In this document: piece by piece, positions 8,544 to 62,064 of the stretch | How positions within the stretch are numbered: position 1 is the first letter of the stretch | Layout: each line of letters opens with the position of its first letter | Source of the DNA: Escherichia phage KBNP1711 | Length of the DNA stretch: 64,000 nt | Direction: 5' to 3' (one strand) | Sequence record: NC_023593.1 | The notes under the pieces: generated by a model | Database searches by the model: none | Seen by the model: only the letters and a program-made list of their open reading frames with translations | What the model was told of the DNA's origin: nothing | Translations under genes and position numbers: made by a program

Positions 8544-9578
8544 ATGGCATATGGAATATGGACAAGACCTGTTGGTCCAGGTCCGGCGGCACCTGCTGAC
8601 ATTTACATCGATAGTGGTAGCACGTTTCCTCAACTCAAGAATAGAGTTAGCGGTAACTTTGCATTTAGTGGAAACATATGTGACCTCCCTATAAACGGGT
8701 GGGATGGAAGTGGTCAAATAGTTATTGTCCCGACAGGTTCTGTGGTATGGGAAAGATACATACCGCCTAATGTGACCTCAGACGTATACTGGATAAACAA
8801 TATCTCAGTTATTAATAACTCTACTTTTCGAGTTACTATGGATTATAATGTTAATGGGTGGGTCTTTGATATGGCTTTTAATGTATATCAGATATGGCCT
8901 AGAGCTAATAGAAACTACGGAATTACTTTTTCTAACACAGCTGATTACTTCTCTATTTCTGACTCTGGCACTGTTGGTCAGTGTATCTGGGCTTGGGAAG
9001 GTGATATAAACGGCTCTCTTCAGATACCAGATATTGGAGGTTTTGATATGAGCCGGGCAACTGTTTATGCAAACTGGAGTCACGGAGGGGCTGGGTTGTT
9101 GTATAACCCATCTAACAGAGTTGTTTATGTGTACCAAAACAGATCTCACGATAATAGTAACACAAACCAAACAGGGTCTATTGGTGGTGTTAGGATTGCT
9201 GTTTTCTGCGATGGTTCTGGAGTACCAACTCACAACGGTGGCCTAAATATCTTTTCCCCAAATGGGTCTCAGTGCGTATTCTCTACCTACAGAACCCCTT
9301 TTAGTGTTGAAGGGTTTATGCCTATGAGTGGAGGTAATACATCTCTGGCCTATCCAATGATACCACTGTCTTATGGGGCTGGGGCTATACGAGGAAGTGC
9401 TAGTGGTTGGTACTTTCAACACACAAGATCTCATATGATGAATGGATCTTCTTTTGGGACAGGGTATGGAAGAATGATATACTCTTGGTCAAATCAGTAT
9501 GATCTCGGTGGTGGGGGTGCTCTAGGATTAAGTATTCCGGTATTAGACGCCAAGAAGATTTTTAGAAGCATACAATAA
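8544..9578 (+). CDS. hypothetical virion protein
   Basis: 344-aa ORF tightly coupled to neighbours in the structural operon. Confidence 0.4.
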   Translation: MAYGIWTRPVGPGPAAPADIYIDSGSTFPQLKNRVSGNFAFSGNICDLPINGWDGSGQIVIVPTGSVVWERYIPPNVTSDVYWINNISVINNSTFRVTMDYNVNGWVFDMAFNVYQIWPRANRNYGITFSNTADYFSISDSGTVGQCIWAWEGDINGSLQIPDIGGFDMSRATVYANWSHGGAGLLYNPSNRVVYVYQNRSHDNSNTNQTGSIGGVRIAVFCDGSGVPTHNGGLNIFSPNGSQCVFSTYRTPFSVEGFMPMSGGNTSLAYPMIPLSYGAGAIRGSASGWYFQHTRSHMMNGSSFGTGYGRMIYSWSNQYDLGGGGALGLSIPVLDAKKIFRSIQ

Positions 9579-21380: not shown

Positions 21381-22022
21381 TTAAGACCCTTGGAATTCTT
21401 CTTTGTCGAAGTGCTTCTCTACCACATACTCATACAGATCTTTATACTCTGCATAACGACGGTAGAATGTACCGTGTGAGATGCCTAATTCTTTCTGAAT
21501 GGAATCGTGAGGGATACCTAAGAAGAGCATTGAGAACATGCTTGCGAGCTTCTGTGTGTCCATTGTATCACTCAAATCTTGGAAGAAGTAGAAGATACGA
21601 GATTCCATGAAAGGGTCCCCAACTGAATCATGCTTATTAACTGCATATTCCAGAGGACCTTCTGAGTAAATGTCAGGGTTGTTAAACATATCTGCTTCTG
21701 GAATAGCATAGATACGTCGATCACCAACTGTCTGTCGATTAGAACGGATAGACCAGATGATATTCTTCACACGATAGGTCATGTGCTCAATCTCTACCTC
21801 ACCTTCTAGTAGAAGCTCTTCTTGCTTGGAATAGATGAAACGCCAAGCATTAAGCAACACCTCTTGAGCTACATCCTCTGCTTCATGATAGTCACGAATG
21901 TCGTACATAAAGAATTTGTGAACCACTTTCCAGTTCACCTTATAGAACTCATCGAAGGTTGGGAAGTATTTGATTGGAATACCGTGAATACGATACCGAG
22001 TAGGTGTTGTTTTCTTAGCCAC
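21381..22022 (-). CDS. sigma-70 family (ECF-like) sigma factor-like protein
   Basis: [16 protein letters not shown] resembles sigma region 2; C-terminal HTH-like [15 protein letters not shown]. Confidence 0.55.
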
Positions 22023-22812: not shown

Positions 22813-23553
22813 TTAGAACGGAGATTCGTCTTCTTCAAAAGTAGACTCAGGCTCACGGTCGATAGTAGGGATAGAAGCAACCGGCTCTTTCTGCTCGTTC
22901 TCAGAAGCCTTAGTGACTTCACGACCAGCGAGAGGAATGTTCTTAGCGTCATTAGCTTGGGTAAGCAGGTTACGCTGGAATGGGAAGATTACCTGGTAAG
23001 CAGCTACGTTATCATCTGTTTCAGCATACGGTTCGAAGAAGACCAAAGGACTGCGAGCAGCAGCAACAGCTTCACGATACTTGGTAGGAATCGGAGTAAT
23101 CTGTTTGATAGAATTCTTAACTTCACCAGCTTTGTTGGTGTAAGAGTTAATCAGAACGTTTACAGGCTGACCTAACAGCATTTCTTTAAACCAAGCTAAA
23201 TCACCTTTCAGTGCTTGGATGCTAGGGTCAACCATCTTAATTAGGTTGAGAATACCAGAGTTCTTAGCTCGTGGGTTTACATCGAAGCTCTTAAATTGAC
23301 ATGCAGGGCGCGGGTCAAGAGCGTTGCCTTCAGAGTCCTTACCGGTTGCATCAACACTAATCAGTTCAAACGCCAAGTCCATACGGAAAGCTGGGTTCTT
23401 AGGAGTAACTGCTTTAGTTTTAGGGTCAACCCAAGGGTCACGATTGTGAACACCAAGACCAACAACACGAACGATACGAGCTTCGTACTCACCATCAGGG
23501 ATTACGTCGTAGTTGGATTTACGGGAAACGGACATAGTTGGGATAGAAGACAT
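22813..23553 (-). CDS. single-stranded DNA-binding protein (T7 gp2.5-like)
   Basis: Acidic C-terminal tail ending EEDESPF; AAGGAA RBS. Confidence 0.6.
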   Translation of the reverse strand: MSSIPTMSVSRKSNYDVIPDGEYEARIVRVVGLGVHNRDPWVDPKTKAVTPKNPAFRMDLAFELISVDATGKDSEGNALDPRPACQFKSFDVNPRAKNSGILNLIKMVDPSIQALKGDLAWFKEMLLGQPVNVLINSYTNKAGEVKNSIKQITPIPTKYREAVAAARSPLVFFEPYAETDDNVAAYQVIFPFQRNLLTQANDAKNIPLAGREVTKASENEQKEPVASIPTIDREPESTFEEDESPF

Positions 23554-23778
23554 ATTTTAATTTCCTTATTTAATTTAAGATTGTTGCTCACTTTGAGCGG
23601 TTATGTATAGTATACATTACACCTATACCGATAAGAGTGCTATGTAGTATAAGCATCAGTGGTAGTAGATATTGACTACTAGTAATGTATATATTGTATA
23701 GATGATAATTCTATTGCAGGCTTGTATATTGGGCAATTCTCAGAATCCCTTGCAAGTACCGAAGGGCAGGAGACACCT

Positions 23779-23843
23779 GCGAGATAAAAATAGAGAATTA
23801 AGGAATCCTTGATTTAGGTTGTGGGGACTCCTAGGGACTTTGA
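23779..23843. repeat. perfect 11-bp inverted repeat AAATAGAGAAT / ATTCTCTATTT around a 43-bp core
   Basis: Read directly in the 414-bp ORF-free region upstream of the SSB gene. Confidence 0.5.
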
Positions 23844-23967
23844 TTCTCTATTTAAAAGATTAATAATTACTTACTACCTAAATAGTTAACTAACTTACTT
23901 AAACCAAATTCAATAATAATAGATAAAAAGATTATTCCTAAGAAAGCTAAGATGTAAAGAACATAAG

Positions 23968-24138
23968 TTACCATTCCATCATTCCTTTTAATCTAGATTC
24001 TTCTACTATTCGCTGATAAAGTAAGTTAGATTCAGCTTGATCTTTTAATATCTTACTATATTGATCTCTGAGACTATCTTTATAAACAACAGGTGGTTTA
24101 AATAGTGATGATACCTTGTTCTTTTCTTCTTTCATCAA
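23968..24138 (-). CDS. hypothetical small protein
   Basis: Track ORF 23968..24219 trimmed to internal Met; overlaps upstream gene end. Confidence 0.25.
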   Translation of the reverse strand: MMKEEKNKVSSLFKPPVVYKDSLRDQYSKILKDQAESNLLYQRIVEESRLKGMMEW

Positions 24139-35656: not shown

Positions 35657-35871
35657 TAGTAATGTACCTTTCCGCTGATATAAATACGGCCTGAGGTATA
35701 CTCATAGCCCTTGAGAATCTTAACAGAGGTAGTGGAGCCATCGTTTAGTGCACAGATTGACTTCTTAAGATTGCGTGCATCTTCTCGTGTCTTCTGGTAG
35801 GTCATGGTCACACCCCCACTCTTCCACTCTGTTTTAACTAACCAAACTATTTTCATAAGACCTGCTCTCAT
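35656..35871 (-). CDS. small basic protein, paralog family B
   Basis: Tandem array member. Confidence 0.45.
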   Translation of the reverse strand: MRAGLMKIVWLVKTEWKSGGVTMTYQKTREDARNLKKSICALNDGSTTSVKILKGYEYTSGRIYISGKVHY

Positions 35872-36083
35872 TAGTAGTACACCTTGCTACCAGCCATAAA
35901 TGCCCCTGTTGAGTTTATCATGGCTTTGCTGATAGTAACTTTCTTACACCGTAAACATACCTTCCAGTTCTTTTTACAGATTCGAGCTTCTTGTCGAGTG
36001 TTACAAAAAATAGCCGAAGATATTTCTTGGGTGTTGTTATCATAAACACGAACACACCACTTTTTCATTGTTCCAAACTCCAC
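35871..36083 (-). CDS. small basic protein, paralog family B
   Basis: Tandem array member. Confidence 0.45.
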   Translation of the reverse strand: MEFGTMKKWCVRVYDNNTQEISSAIFCNTRQEARICKKNWKVCLRCKKVTISKAMINSTGAFMAGSKVYY

Positions 36084-36283
36084 TATCTGTCAACCGATTC
36101 AGGGACAAACTGCATTACACAGACCTGATTACGAGGAAGGTTTATTTCACAAGCGGCTTTTCTATCAGCAACCTTAGATGACGAGTTAGGGCCAATTTGA
36201 GCCATCATTAATCCCATAGCTAACATGCCGAGGATTACACCAATTGCTAAAGATGCTACAGTTTCTTGTTTCATCTTGATCAC
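36083..36283 (-). CDS. small membrane protein
   Basis: Hydrophobic ASLAIGVILGMLAMGLMMA segment. Confidence 0.35.
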   Translation of the reverse strand: MIKMKQETVASLAIGVILGMLAMGLMMAQIGPNSSSKVADRKAACEINLPRNQVCVMQFVPESVDR

Positions 36284-36813
36284 ACCCCTTTAGATGCAAC
36301 TACACCTTCAGAATTATTATAACGACCCTTCACTGCATATGAATGTTCCCCTGCATGAGAGTGCTCAAACATAACCATCTGACCAACACGCATACCAGCA
36401 CGAACTCGTAAGCTATGATGCTTGGTTACGTTATGGAATTCAAATGTCAGCTTACTGCTATTAAACCCTGCGTCTGCCCACCCAGCGTGGAGATGGTTCA
36501 AGCCACAACGAGCCATCGAAGACCGCAGGACAAACAAACTGGAGATGTTATCTGGAAGGTTAAACTCTTCCATCGAGTGAGCTAAGAAGAATTGTCCCGG
36601 AGTAATGATAATACCGTCTTCAGGGATTTTTACTTCTTTCCACTTGAGATTTTCTTTCGCATCAATGTCAACAATCCCATCAGCCTGTTCTTCAATAAGG
36701 ATAGTATCACCAATACGGATATCCACACTAGCAGCGTTAACATACTTATGCTCCGCATCCAGAAAACCGTTATCGATAACGTCGTGTAATTCCATGCTTC
36801 CTAATAAACTCAT
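36280..36813 (-). CDS. dCTP deaminase/dUTPase-family protein
   Basis: ASVDIRIGD and HAGWADAGF motifs. Confidence 0.65.
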   Translation of the reverse strand: MSLLGSMELHDVIDNGFLDAEHKYVNAASVDIRIGDTILIEEQADGIVDIDAKENLKWKEVKIPEDGIIITPGQFFLAHSMEEFNLPDNISSLFVLRSSMARCGLNHLHAGWADAGFNSSKLTFEFHNVTKHHSLRVRAGMRVGQMVMFEHSHAGEHSYAVKGRYNNSEGVVASKGV

Positions 36814-36827
36814 TCTTATTCCTTATG

Positions 36828-38108
36828 TTAATCTGTGATACTGTCGCTTTCGTCAACCCAGACTGGATTATTAATCTGTCCTAAACGACGAGCTGATGTT
36901 TCGTTAATAGAGTTAACCCCTGCTGTGCGAGGGTTTGTGTACCACGGTCGGACTATGCTACCCGACTGAATTGCTTGGTTTGCTTCTACATGCCACCTGT
37001 TTGATACCGTGTTGGCTTCAAAGTTACCACCCGCTCCACCACTGATAGGCACAGCTTGAGCTGGTTGATTTACTCGGTTAGTTCCTGCCCCAAAGGCTGC
37101 TGCAAATTCAGACACACGTGCACTAAATGAAGAACGAGCACGCTGAGGAGGTGATATATCATTTCGTGTATCTACTGCACGAGGCATAGCCCAAGTATCA
37201 TCTGTTGAGATATCAGGGGTAGGCTCTTGCTCTAGAGGTTGAAGATTAGCTGTCCATTGACTATTCAGTATACGATAGAAATCTGCACCATAACCACTTC
37301 GGATAACATCCTCTCTGACACCAAAGAAGCGACTGATATCCCCACCGATTCGGGCTAGTTTGTCATTGTATGCAGGTATGATTATTCCACCCTCTGTCAC
37401 TAAATCAGAGACACGACTTGTTGTAAGTGGTGAAGTGATCCAACAATAATAATCAGTAATGTGACCATCGTATCCGAAGAATGCAATCTCTGCATCAGGC
37501 CATTTCTTGTGGACATATGCCACTTCACGGTTAGAACAAACAGGGATTGCACCTGTTTCAGTCATTGCATAGAAGCCGTCAGAAGAGAACCAAAGTGAAT
37601 CTAGTGCTAAGAATCCACGACACACGCTCGGGAAAGTAGCAGCCAGCGCCCCAAGTGAGGTAGGTTCATTGAACATTAACTGAATCTTTGCACTCTGATA
37701 ATTAATCTCTAGGATATCTACAAAATTCAAAGAAGACCCAGGGGCATATTGATTATTACTTCGTCCAATATCCTGCTCAATGAGAAGAGATCTTGTTTCA
37801 ACACCATGAGCCTCTGCCCACTCTTTGAAATCTTCAAGGAACAAGCGAGCCTTAGCTCGCCACATCGACCGATCAGTTACAGACTGTCTCGGCAATCCAC
37901 CCTCTGTAGTGATGAGAAAGATATCAATGTCGTGAGGTTCACGCGTCTGAAAGATTGCATCCCTAACAGCACCACCTGCAATGATAGGGTACACACCATC
38001 AGGGATTAAACGGTTTGCAATCAACTCGTTAATTAACGTAAGACCAGACACAAGCTGCGGACTATCATCAATCCGACGACGAATTAGTGCATTAGGGATA
38101 TTATACAT
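36828..38108 (-). CDS. nucleotidyltransferase with CCA-adding-enzyme-like head domain
   Basis: IIAGGAVRDAIFQTREPHDIDIFL = GGxVRD...DxD motif of the Pol-beta-type tRNA nucleotidyltransferase/poly(A) polymerase head; long C-terminal region of unknown type. Confidence 0.5.
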   Translation of the reverse strand: MYNIPNALIRRRIDDSPQLVSGLTLINELIANRLIPDGVYPIIAGGAVRDAIFQTREPHDIDIFLITTEGGLPRQSVTDRSMWRAKARLFLEDFKEWAEAHGVETRSLLIEQDIGRSNNQYAPGSSLNFVDILEINYQSAKIQLMFNEPTSLGALAATFPSVCRGFLALDSLWFSSDGFYAMTETGAIPVCSNREVAYVHKKWPDAEIAFFGYDGHITDYYCWITSPLTTSRVSDLVTEGGIIIPAYNDKLARIGGDISRFFGVREDVIRSGYGADFYRILNSQWTANLQPLEQEPTPDISTDDTWAMPRAVDTRNDISPPQRARSSFSARVSEFAAAFGAGTNRVNQPAQAVPISGGAGGNFEANTVSNRWHVEANQAIQSGSIVRPWYTNPRTAGVNSINETSARRLGQINNPVWVDESDSITD

Positions 38109-38657
38109 TTACATTTTCCAATATAAAGATGGGGGGTCATTTGGGTCAAAGTTTGCAATATGGCAAAGATATTTATAAACCTTAACCGTTAAGTTTACGT
38201 CCTGTTCACAATAAGTAAACATGTCCTCTGTAAAGGCATCCCATGCTTCTTCCTGTTCACCGTAATCACCCTTAAGCTCTTCTAAGAACTCACCCCATTG
38301 CTTTAAGCCATGACCTCTTGGGCCATGTCTAGGGTCGCCTTTCGGATACTCAGGACTGTCACCAATACGGTCAGGTTTAAGATACCGACTCAGACATAAA
38401 GTGTCTAGGACGTTGAATTTGTAATCAATCAAATCAGGGTACATCTTCTTCAGAGCACATAAGTCGAAGTCAATAACGTTATGACCTACAACAACATCAG
38501 CCTCTGTAAGTTTCTTGATACCCTCTTCAATCTGGTGAGGGCGAAATCCCCACCGTTCACCAGTTGATATATCGAAGATAAAGATACACCATACGTTTGT
38601 GATATTGTCGTACAGTGCATCACTCTCAATATCAAATGCGTAGACTTTCTTTACCAC
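38109..38657 (-). CDS. 3'-5' exonuclease homologous to the proofreading domain of T7 DNA polymerase, encoded as a separate gene
   Basis: [36 protein letters not shown] align with the Exo I-III motifs of the T7 gp5 N-terminus. Confidence 0.75.
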
Positions 38658-54196: not shown

Positions 54197-54271
54197 TGGC
54201 GTCCCCACTAGGACTCGAACCTAGAATGGATTTTTAGAAGAAATCTGTTATATCCTTTTAACTATAGGGAC
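54197..54271 (-). tRNA. tRNA-Arg (anticodon UCU)
   Basis: Hand-folded cloverleaf: 7-bp acceptor stem, D stem GTTA/TAAC, anticodon stem GATTT/AAATC with loop CTTCTAA, T arm CTAGG-TTCGAGT-CCTAG, encoded CCA. Confidence 0.8.
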
Positions 54272-60108: not shown

Positions 60109-62064
60109 CTTTCAATTGTAAGGGCACTATGCCCCGCTCTCTATGAGCTTTTTAAGTCGCCATTGACTTATCAATATCCACTCATTGTTAAGTAATTATT
60201 GATAAGTGGGGCGGTCTTATCAGAAGTTAACCTTGCCGCCCCTTTATCTGTGATGTTTCATCTGGTATCTTTAATTAGTCGCTATAAACGAAGCCGACCT
60301 GATAGCGATGATCAATCATCACAATAAGGCAGTGCGTCCGACTCTAATTAGTTACTTTATTGTAACCGTCGGCAATATCGTCTACTTTGCTTTCGCTCTC
60401 GCCTATCCTTTTATACTAACTCTCAATCGCTAACCATCGCCCACTACGGGAGGTTATTGCGAAAGAGTCATTAGCCGTCTAATATTCCGACGTTTTATAT
60501 CTTTCGGCAAGTTTACTACATAACCCGACTATGTACTTTCATCTTGTGATGAATCTCAAGCCGTTCGCATCGTAAACGTTCACACTAAACCTTATTGTTA
60601 AATAGCAATTTGCCACTTTTTAACCACTCCCCGCCGCTCTCAATTGAGCGTTAATTAGTCGGGCTTGCCTACCCTGATTAACTTCTTTCACTGTAGCACC
60701 ATGTTAGCGATGGCCGCCGCTACCCTTAACCGTGGGCGATTAGTTTAAGCCTTTGCGTGTACTCAATGAATCCGCTTATCAGTGGTGACGTTTCCAGTTA
60801 AGGGATTGTGAGATTGTTTTCTCTGATAGTCTAGAGAATCTCACACCGTTTTATCTGGTATGCTGTCCGATGGTTATTATCTTCCAGCATATTTAACCGA
60901 TATAGGAGAATGTTTAAATTGTTAAAGAGCGGTAAATCTATCAACGTGCTTTCTCACGTTATGCAACTGTTAGCCGTTGTTACGCTTTTCACTGAAGCGG
61001 TGATTTGCTTAAGTGGTGCTCATTATGGACCATGTTGTTTTTGCCGTCAATCACTTTTTTAATCTTTTTCGTCGTTCCCGCTATTGGGAGGATATATCAA
61101 CCCGCTTTATTGGGTTGAAGATTAAGCGATGAGGCTTAACCCATGATTCATACTGTTAAAGAGCGTTTAGCCTTTTATAGTGTCTGCTAATCACTGCATC
61201 ATTAAAGGCTTACTTATTCATTAACGGGGCGCCTAAGCCCGAACTACCCGCTGCACTATGTGCCACCTTTCCCGCGATACGTTGATTTGGGAACTAGTTA
61301 ACGTTGTTTTGTTAACTTGTGGTTAGTATGGACTACCTTAACCACGTTTGCAACCTCTTTTTTATCATCTTCTTTTATTCTTTTCCCTTATCTCGCGTGA
61401 ATCTATGCGAAAGGGCAAGATGATAAGTCTGATTTGTCTTTTAGGAATCTAGTGCGCTTTCAAGCATTGACCATTTGAAAGTATCGAACAAATGAGGCTT
61501 ATTTTGTTGCTCATCGTCCGCCTGTTCACGTATGAATCAGGAATCAATTCTAGTGGTCAACTAAGCGCCTTATAGTAATGACGTTCCCGCCACCTGTAAG
61601 ACAAATCATATTTTTAAAGAGCGGGATTTTTCAAGTCATCGCTGACTATGCTCACTATATATCAGGCTTTTTCCGGTGTCAATACTCTTTTTCAAGTATT
61701 TTCACTTTCTAGCCTGATTTTTAAAGAGCGGGGCAATTTCTTGCCTTGTATGTTTTACATCGTACCCGATGAAATGAAGTATACATTAATCAGATGAGGT
61801 TGCAATAGGGTAAAGCAAATTATTTTAAACTTTTTGAAAGGTGGGAAGTATAAGAGAATGCGCGCGGGATAACATACCCAAAACAGGCTGTAAATCACTT
61901 TCTAACGTCCTGTAAGCCATTCTAATGAGCTAAAAGGAGGCAAGGTATACAATCACCTTAGAAAAGAAAAAAGCCTCATAGCGAGGCTTACAGGAAGGAT
62001 TAGAGAATCAGATAGATTATGACCATAGGCATGACCACGGCACAATATAAGAGAAAGATTAAGC
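60109..62064. other. 1.9-kb ORF-free region with dispersed short repeats; candidate origin, terminal or regulatory region
   Basis: No ORF of 60 aa or more in any frame; four TTAAAGAGCG copies (60931, 61165, 61614, 61731); inverted repeat CTTATCAATA/TATTGATAAG at 60176-60214. Confidence 0.5.

Follow-up and report, generated by a model that had tools for sequence, protein, structure and literature searches.

The window, a stretch of 64,000 nucleotides from Escherichia phage KBNP1711 (NC_023593.1), belongs to a phiEco32-like coliphage of the subfamily Gordonclarkvirinae (Kuravirus, Suseptimavirus). The late genes of this phage are encoded on the plus strand up to about 18.6 kb, and all genes beyond that point are on the minus strand. 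Within the minus-strand block, directly upstream of the homologue of phiEco32 gene 40, there is a spacer whose equivalent in phiEco32 separates gene 40 (35826-36572, minus strand) from gene 41 (36888-36995, minus strand). Altogether, 106 phage records matched this region, the best matches being Escherichia phages EP335 and KarlSchell_Bas89 (95.7%), with phiEco32 itself at 88%. For the comparative analysis, 34 homologous loci were gathered; the sources were phage genomes, IMG/VR and metagenomes, and the set comprises 25 distinct sequences.

A previous reading of the DNA, made from the sequence only, described a 414-bp ORF-free region upstream of an "SSB" gene, and both parts of this description have to be revised. 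The distal part of the region encodes a homologue of gene 41, which is already annotated as a CDS in many relatives, so that the truly non-coding stretch ends at 23866 and spans 313 bp (23554-23866). The name "SSB" for gene 40 finds no support in Pfam, PHROGs or PDB sequence searches, and appears in a single GenBank record among those listed. The predicted 5' untranslated region of gene 40, with a mean pairwise identity of 0.89 among relatives, includes an AAGGAAA ribosome-binding site as well as a small hairpin at 23586-23598 (GCTCA/TGAGC). The homologue of the phage sigma factor gp36 is encoded nearby, 1.6 kb from the spacer (ORF 21381-22022, minus strand; 84% identity to phiEco32 gp36). The features of the locus are collected in Table 1.

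Table 1. Features of the gene 40-gene 41 spacer and its borders, in window coordinates
Feature	Positions	Strand	Description
Predicted 5' UTR of the gene-40 homologue	23554-23604	-	Between the predicted start of P40 transcription (23604) and the ATG (23553)
P40, gp36 element TAATGTATA	23611-23619	-	Exact motif; published middle promoter of the gene-40 operon; invariant in 28 relatives
Conserved 12-bp box TGGTAGTAGATA	23660-23671	+	-38 to -27 of the predicted plus-strand start, between the two promoters
Second gp36-type element TAATGTATA	23683-23691	+	Exact match, 9/9; faces away from gene 40; predicted start 23698
P1 hairpin, ATAGA-TGATAAT-TCTAT	23698-23714	+	5' end of the predicted RNA
Variable module, type A	23715-23757	+	39-43 nt, from alignments of relatives
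Conserved linker ACCGAAGG, P3 hairpin and A-rich tract GAGAUAA	23758-23787	+	27 of 30 columns invariant; identity 0.95
P3 hairpin, GCAGG-AGACA-CCUGC	23766-23780	+	Sole clearly variable base in the loop
P4, long interrupted hairpin	23788-23853	both	Base formed by the 11-bp inverted repeat; 3' hairpin of the predicted RNA
Gene-41 homologue	23867-23974	-	35 aa, strongly hydrophobic; convergent with the predicted RNA; phrog_24970 match, E=3e-22

[quoted passage not shown] The center of AATGTA has been placed at -11.5 relative to the start (PMC12276001), and the P40 start at 23604 was inferred from this spacing. Six middle/late gp36 promoters, P6, P13, P26, P40, P58 and P68, have been published (Pavlova et al. 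2012, as relayed in PMC8948821, PMC4331800 and PMC12276001). The exact element TAATGTATA is present in six copies in the window, against 0.84 expected, and two of these copies lie in the spacer, back to back and divergent, 72 bp apart (64 bp between them). One copy is P40, and the other is on the plus strand, where no conserved ORF is found downstream and the next 40 kb consist of minus-strand genes. Unlike a typical gp36 promoter, which is located upstream of, and codirectional with, a middle/late gene, the plus-strand copy serves no such gene. Only the six promoters, without this copy and without any RNA gene, appear in the accounts compared here, all of which are secondary to the mapping paper (Pavlova et al. 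2012), which may itself mention the plus-strand copy; our literature search recovered no Kuravirus transcriptome paper.

The plus-strand element is unchanged in 24 of the 25 distinct relatives, the exception being one metagenome contig with TAATATATA. Its distance from the downstream P1 hairpin is a constant 6 nt, whereas the distance from P40 is 61, 71-72 or 190-192 bp, depending on the relative, because some relatives carry an insertion of 120-130 bp between the promoters. Therefore, the plus-strand element belongs with the sequence downstream of it rather than with P40. The spacers adjoining the element are only 43-58% identical among relatives, and the 12-bp box TGGTAGTAGATA stands out from this background, with 10 of its 12 columns invariant between two variable flanks (identity 0.43-0.58). 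This box is always 11 nt away from the plus-strand element and remains beside it in the relatives with the 120-130 bp insertion; none of the window's other gp36 promoters has such a box. In the cryo-EM open complex, the C-terminal domain of gp36 touches the -35 region (PMC12276001), and the box is possibly an upstream (-35 region) element or else a site for a regulator or another protein. Initiation by the gp36 holoenzyme is predicted from the plus-strand copy at 23698, exactly where the covarying P1 hairpin begins.

The sequence-only reading had suggested a promoter in this part of the spacer on the strength of hexamers resembling -35 and -10 boxes. The kind of element was recognized correctly and its details were not: the conserved features are the two divergent gp36 elements, and the sigma-70-like TTGACT is not among them. 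For the operator that was proposed as well, the box TGGTAGTAGATA between the promoters would be a candidate. A sigma-70 promoter, with TTGACT at 23672-23677 and TGTATAGAT at 23695-23703, was considered and rejected because TTGACT is not kept in relatives and scan matches are at background (6, compared to 3.3±1.7 expected).

P1 indicates that the plus strand is constrained as RNA. Among relatives, this hairpin takes the forms ATAGA/TCTAT, ATAGCT/AGCTAT, ATAGCT/AGTTAT, ATAGTT/AACTAT and AGAGTT/AACTCT, so that two pairs are altered on both sides (U-A to G-C, and C-G to U-A or A-U). At one pair, the 23 distinct sequences are divided between G-C (13) and G·U (10). Because G·U would correspond to mismatched C·A on the minus strand, the constraint acts on the plus-strand RNA. 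The covariation score of P1 was reached by none of 500 shuffles, and slid controls scored far lower.

The segment that follows P1 is exchangeable. Type A of this module is replaced in other relatives by type B, which is 64 nt long, structured, and unrelated in sequence, and which shows one compensatory change, U-A to C-G, in ECBP2. The P1 type, the module type and the variant of the P4 loop combine in a mixed fashion among relatives, which implies recombination at the conserved linkers.

The last ~96 nt of the element (23758-23853), consisting of the linker, P3, the A tract and P4, form a 3' domain with a mean pairwise identity of 0.95-0.96. For comparison, identity in gene 40 is 0.93-0.94 at codon positions 1 and 2 and 0.75 at position 3, the genes on the other side of the spacer are at 0.55-0.67, and conservation drops to 0.61 directly after P4. 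The few changes in the 3' domain are located in predicted loops, bulges or helix ends, or yield G·U pairs. As P3 and P4 are almost without variation, they offer no covariation for or against the RNA fold.

The base of P4 is the inverted repeat that had been noticed in the sequence, AAATAGAGAAT and its exact reverse complement ATTCTCTATTT. The repeat exists and is exact, with 44 nt between the arms, but it is located 9-10 bases away from where it had been placed, at 23788-23798 and 23843-23853 rather than at 23779-23789 and 23833-23843; the core reported between the arms, GGTTGTGGGGACTCCTAGGGAC, is present at 23817-23838. When the region was shuffled 500 times with dinucleotides preserved, 13 shuffles contained a perfect inverted repeat of at least 11 bp with a loop of 3-60 nt, so the repeat by itself is only modestly unusual; it is near-invariant across 97 related phage genomes. 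In P4 as a whole, 56 of the 66 columns are invariant (identity 0.96). As plus-strand RNA, P4 forms 16 pairs, with G·U included (23788-23803 with 23838-23853), around a small three-way interior (-23.5 kcal/mol, z=-3.5), and as minus-strand RNA it forms 11+8 pairs (-17.7 kcal/mol, z=-4.5). On the minus strand, P4 is followed by UUUUUAU, which is invariant; on the plus strand, it is followed by UUUAAAA, or by UUAAAA in 7 relatives, that is, by only 2-3 U.

These properties bear on whether P4 ends transcription. The hairpin sits between the gene-41 stop (23867, minus strand) and the plus-strand unit, itself predicted, and this convergent placement fits a bidirectional terminator. Given the U5 tract on the minus strand, P4 is probably such a terminator. 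That it terminates the convergent gene-42/41 transcript is credible and fits the position of P40 just downstream; the gene-41 transcript should thus end in P4. For the plus-strand RNA, P4 might be a weaker terminator or a mere 3' cap. By the usual description of an intrinsic terminator, a stable G+C-rich stem with a short loop, P4 does not qualify: 3 of its 16 pairs are G-C, and the "loop" is a 38-nt substructure that includes a pair of GGGACU repeats. Its stability nevertheless far exceeds that of shuffled sequences on either strand. A simple terminator consensus scan gave no sites at P4; the stem is too rich in A/U and the loop too large for it.

The searches place the element in this group of phages only. 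A gene-40 homologue at 80% identity or more is present in 97 phage records, and every one of these carries the 3' domain with at least 93% identity; none of the 28 records sampled from these 97 annotates it. The sequence-only reading had listed absence of conservation in relatives among the outcomes that would speak against it, and conservation is extreme. Outside the group, more distant gene-40 neighborhoods have short spacers without the element; this applies to the 67%-identity relative L018 and to Grimontviridae and others (7-11, GAP52, CsaP_009, J3S, LAh_8, Vp_R1). These element-less relatives include Privateer-like phages (Grimontviridae), Aeromonas phage LAh_8 and Vibrio phage Vp_R1. 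Pattern scans returned the same phage group only, including 4 IMG/VR loci and 6 metagenome contigs; an exact-pattern scan of 185,579 species genomes detected the element in no bacterial genome, and when 50,697 phage records were searched with the 3' domain by permissive BLAST, only this group and noise of 20-25 nt came up. There is no second copy in the window by nhmmer. With Rfam 15, no family reached its gathering score in the window, and at E values up to 10 only noise was found, both here and in three type-B relatives.

The reading that we favor, and to which we assign a moderately high probability on the basis of the sequence, is that the element is an unannotated gene for a gp36-dependent small non-coding RNA of ~160 nt. 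The features that point to it are the motifs, the conservation, the P1 covariation, the module swap and the block boundaries. The gp36 holoenzyme would start at 23698 in the middle/late phase and produce an RNA extending to about 23856 (184-188 nt in type B relatives), in which the 5'-terminal hairpin P1 is followed by the exchangeable structured module and then by the near-invariant 3' domain with P3 and the long P4. P4 would serve both strands, ending or capping the plus-strand RNA and, with its U5 tract, terminating the convergent minus-strand operon. Hairpins at both ends suggest a stable RNA, which they would protect so that it accumulates. Most likely, such a molecule would act as a regulatory or protein-binding RNA, with the invariant 3' domain as the scaffold and the variable module as the specificity part. 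The local GC skew, which is positive over 23500-23850 within a block of minus-strand genes, agrees with a plus-strand RNA. On the other side, the folding z-score of the whole RNA is only -2.0, and the minus strand folds too (z=-1.8).

The weak plus-strand U tract, the A/U-rich stem and the empty terminator scan make the 3' end of this RNA uncertain, and antisense read-through is possible. The hairpin with a long 3' U tail that is characteristic of Hfq-type small RNAs is not seen here, with 2-3 U after P4. Because P4 would be shared between convergent units, the last ~66 nt of the RNA would match the gene-41/42 mRNA at its 3' end with perfect complementarity. Elsewhere in the window, no complementary stretch was longer than 11 nt, as expected by chance, and a BLAST search for targets in E. 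coli genomes, a method blind to short seeds, was empty.

A coding function of the plus strand was considered and rejected. The ATG of a 36-aa plus-strand ORF is unique to this window (relatives have CTG, TAG or TTA there), and a length difference of ~25 nt separates the two modules. The minus-strand "hypothetical proteins" that a few records show at this locus have no counterpart in the window.

A bolder version of the proposal, which we regard as distinctly unlikely, is that the RNA represents a new class of phage-sigma-dependent scaffold RNAs, in which an invariant 3' domain with a topology resembling the top half of a tRNA binds a host or phage protein and the exchangeable module sets specificity, or else that the transcript is the long-sought replication primer/origin of phiEco32-like phages. 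A scaffold RNA of this kind could serve, for example, as a decoy for a tRNA-directed defense nuclease, or could take up an RNA-binding regulator as a sponge.

The invariance of the 3' domain could instead come from functions at the DNA level or on the minus strand, and the most serious alternative to the small RNA is built on the latter. P4, perhaps together with P3, would insulate the P40 operon and would act on the gene-42/41 mRNA as its intrinsic terminator, as a 3' stabilizer or as a site of RNase III-type processing, and the plus-strand TAATGTATA would be non-productive or would act via interference or antisense read-through. The minus strand has the better U tract and its hairpin folds well, P40 lies immediately downstream, which implies that incoming transcription is stopped at P4, and the authors of the SU10 study predicted few terminators, none of them on the plus strand at this locus. 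However, a terminator has no need of an invariant 38-nt loop, of P3 or of the linker. Furthermore, this explanation does not account for a plus-strand element that is as conserved as P40 and is located 6 nt from a hairpin with plus-only G·U pairing, nor for a conserved block that runs from the -35 box through P4. On balance, we consider it rather unlikely.

A replication origin of the T4 oriF/oriG or ColE1 type, where a middle-mode plus-strand RNA would stay as an R-loop and prime the leading strand, would make sense of a phage-specific promoter that opposes all neighboring genes and serves no ORF. The location inside the block of replication genes, the G-rich transcript (positive GC skew), which favors R-loops, and an AT-rich stretch (19-24% GC) beyond P4 all fit. 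Yet the covariation of P1, G·U pairs included, is that of a folded RNA, and no AT-rich unwinding element is found directly 3' of the promoter, GC content being 41-44% over 23700-23850; the AT-rich stretch past P4 is coding and not conserved (identity 0.55-0.61). There is no iteron array, just the one pair of GGGACU repeats in the P4 loop, and no skew inflection at 23.7 kb, which is weak evidence because skew tracks transcription here, the only GC-skew inflection in the window being the switch of gene orientation at 18.7 kb. The "secondary origin" proposed from the sequence thus gains no positive evidence, and we give an origin little credence.

Still less probable is a pair similar to type I toxin-antitoxin systems, in which the plus-strand RNA would be the antisense antitoxin of the gene-41 peptide. 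The peptide is small and strongly hydrophobic, as a putative toxin would be, and the two convergent units share P4, with a perfect 3' overlap of at least about 66 nt. Co-occurrence fails, however: gene 41 is missing in 7-10 of the 25 distinct relatives (Paul, XT32, Bas86, Bas87, EK010, ECBP2, LAMP-type), where the RNA element is nearly unchanged. In addition, gene 41 is part of a long operon and has no promoter of its own.

The resemblance to tRNA that had been noticed in P4 concerns the only tRNA in the window, tRNA-Arg at 54197-54271 (ARAGORN, Rfam). The shared blocks exist: AATCC, ATT-TAGGTT, TCCTAG and GGGAC follow one another in the order seen in the 3' half of the tRNA, and the topology is reminiscent of a "top half", since a long stem has a hairpin stacked immediately on its 3' strand. 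The similarity is not distinguishable from chance, however, since ordinary local scoring of a formal alignment was matched by 86 of 1000 and 121 of 500 shuffles, and the long-gap score reached by just 3 of 500 shuffles depends on parameters picked after seeing the data. Most relatives have GTAGGGAC or G--AGGAC in place of the main shared 8-mer, GTGGGGAC; the loop has 9-11 nt compared with 7 nt in a T loop; ARAGORN detects no tRNA or tmRNA at the spacer, and the Rfam tRNA model finds nothing tRNA-like in 23550-23900 at E values up to 10. Descent of the apical part of P4 from the T arm and 3' acceptor strand of a tRNA, or mimicry of these, a notion that also covers a remnant of a recombination site or a decoy for tRNA-directed enzymes, is hardly plausible given these results and, as regards recombination, a virulent phage with no integrase or attachment-site context.

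Should the small RNA be real, it would matter in several ways. phiEco32 is the reference system for phage-sigma-directed transcription (gp36 and gp79), and its relatives have been widely isolated for therapy and are included in the BASEL collection, whose authors describe their molecular biology as poorly studied (PMC11990801). The plus-strand element would be a seventh gp36 promoter, one that makes a non-coding RNA instead of an mRNA, and an RNA player would be added to the middle/late program. It would also explain why the spacer is more conserved than the surrounding genes, and would give annotators a feature missing from the sampled records. The element is easy to test because it is short, single-copy and flanked by a known promoter; a single-base knock-out of the plus-strand promoter, from TAATGTATA to TAACGTATA, is conceivable. 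Since phage small RNAs and bidirectional terminators are known kinds already, such a finding would weigh less than the discovery of a new mechanism.

Several known systems share parts of this arrangement. The T4 origins oriF(uvsY) and oriG(34) consist of a middle-mode promoter and a downstream unwinding element. Like these, the locus described here combines a phage-specific middle promoter with a non-coding transcript among replication genes; in contrast to them, the transcribed region is structured, moderately GC-rich and covaries as RNA, and no unwinding element is present at the promoter. T4 also encodes RNA C and RNA D (species 1 and 2), small stable phage RNAs of unknown function whose genes lie within the tRNA cluster and which arise by processing of a tRNA precursor. 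The common traits are those of structured RNAs of 120-190 nt from a lytic coliphage, with a hint of tRNA likeness and no known target, whereas the RNA predicted here has its own promoter, 30 kb from the single tRNA gene, and shows no sequence similarity to the T4 RNAs and no Rfam match.

A further comparison is with small RNAs whose bidirectional intrinsic terminator also serves a convergent gene, such as SR4/bsrG and RatA/txpA of B. subtilis, which are 3'-overlapping antisense pairs. There, as predicted here, the units are convergent, one hairpin between A and U tracts closes both, and a small hydrophobic ORF lies opposite. The differences are the phage-sigma promoter, the 38-nt conserved insert in the hairpin, the short plus-strand U tract, and the persistence of the predicted RNA where the small ORF is absent. 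With the phiEco32 gp36 promoters of the published accounts, much is shared: the element tAATGTAtA is the same, the phage family is the same, the sigma factor is encoded 1.6 kb away, and one of the two copies is P40 itself. What sets the second copy apart from them is that it is reversed, precedes no ORF, falls outside the list of six in those accounts, and has an upstream box of its own.

Upstream of the plus-strand promoter, we identified a conserved box (TGGTAGTAGATA) that is separated from the gp36 element of this promoter by a constant 11-nt spacing and is absent at the remaining gp36 promoters in the window. The C-terminal domain of gp36, the phage sigma factor, could contact this box as a -35-region sequence; alternatively, a regulator could bind there. 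Among the homologous loci collected, the plus-strand element itself is altered only in L029, from metagenome contig ERZ1034915 NODE-75, where it reads TAATATATA and the RNA element is otherwise intact. The insertion that separates the two divergent promoters in EcM-vB1 is also present in myPSH2311, ES17 and the homologous loci L017 and L029-L033; it contains a 47-aa basic ORF (MKFNHKYAATEKARAYVTARQSRVYKRQSPTNNSKETFVWTKPTTFR) without an obvious ribosome-binding site.

Elsewhere in the window, two further exact copies of TAATGTATA have no obvious counterpart among the six published gp36 promoters, and the one-mismatch variant AAATGTATA, judging from its position, may be the published P68.

Features of the locus, its relatives and other gp36-type elements
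Feature	Position	Strand	Remarks
gp36 element, exact TAATGTATA	8879-8887	+	within late ORF 8544-9578
gene-40 homologue	22813-23553	-	phiEco32 gene 40; phrog_6599
conserved box TGGTAGTAGATA	23660-23671		-38 to -27 of predicted plus-strand start
GGGACU hexamer, two copies	23824-23839		inside P4 loop; 10 nt apart, flanking CCUAGG palindrome
gene-41 homologue	23867-23974	-	35 aa, strongly hydrophobic: MVTYVLYILAFLGIIFLSIIIEFGLSKLVNYLGSK
gp36 element variant AAATGTATA	38102-38110	-	one mismatch; boundary of ORFs 36828-38108 and 38109-38657
gp36 element, exact TAATGTATA	61780-61788	-	region corresponding to early genes
inter-promoter insertion, ~120-130 bp	L007:486-629	-	phage EcM-vB1
altered plus-strand element TAATATATA	L029:8936-8944		metagenome contig

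In one group of relatives, both hexamers of the P4 loop are short of a G together, resulting in AGGACU copies 9 nt apart. The hexamer pair with its palindrome could serve to bind a protein or to mediate dimerisation through loop-loop contacts.

The gene-40 homologue, which the sequence-only reading took for an SSB gene, showed no Pfam matches, a PDB sequence search with it returned nothing, and its phrog family is annotated as function unknown; the name ssDNA-binding protein appears in just one of the GenBank records listed.

The gene-41 homologue is convergent with the predicted plus-strand RNA, an arrangement resembling that of a type I toxin-antitoxin pair; unlike such a pair, however, several relatives retain the RNA element without gene 41.
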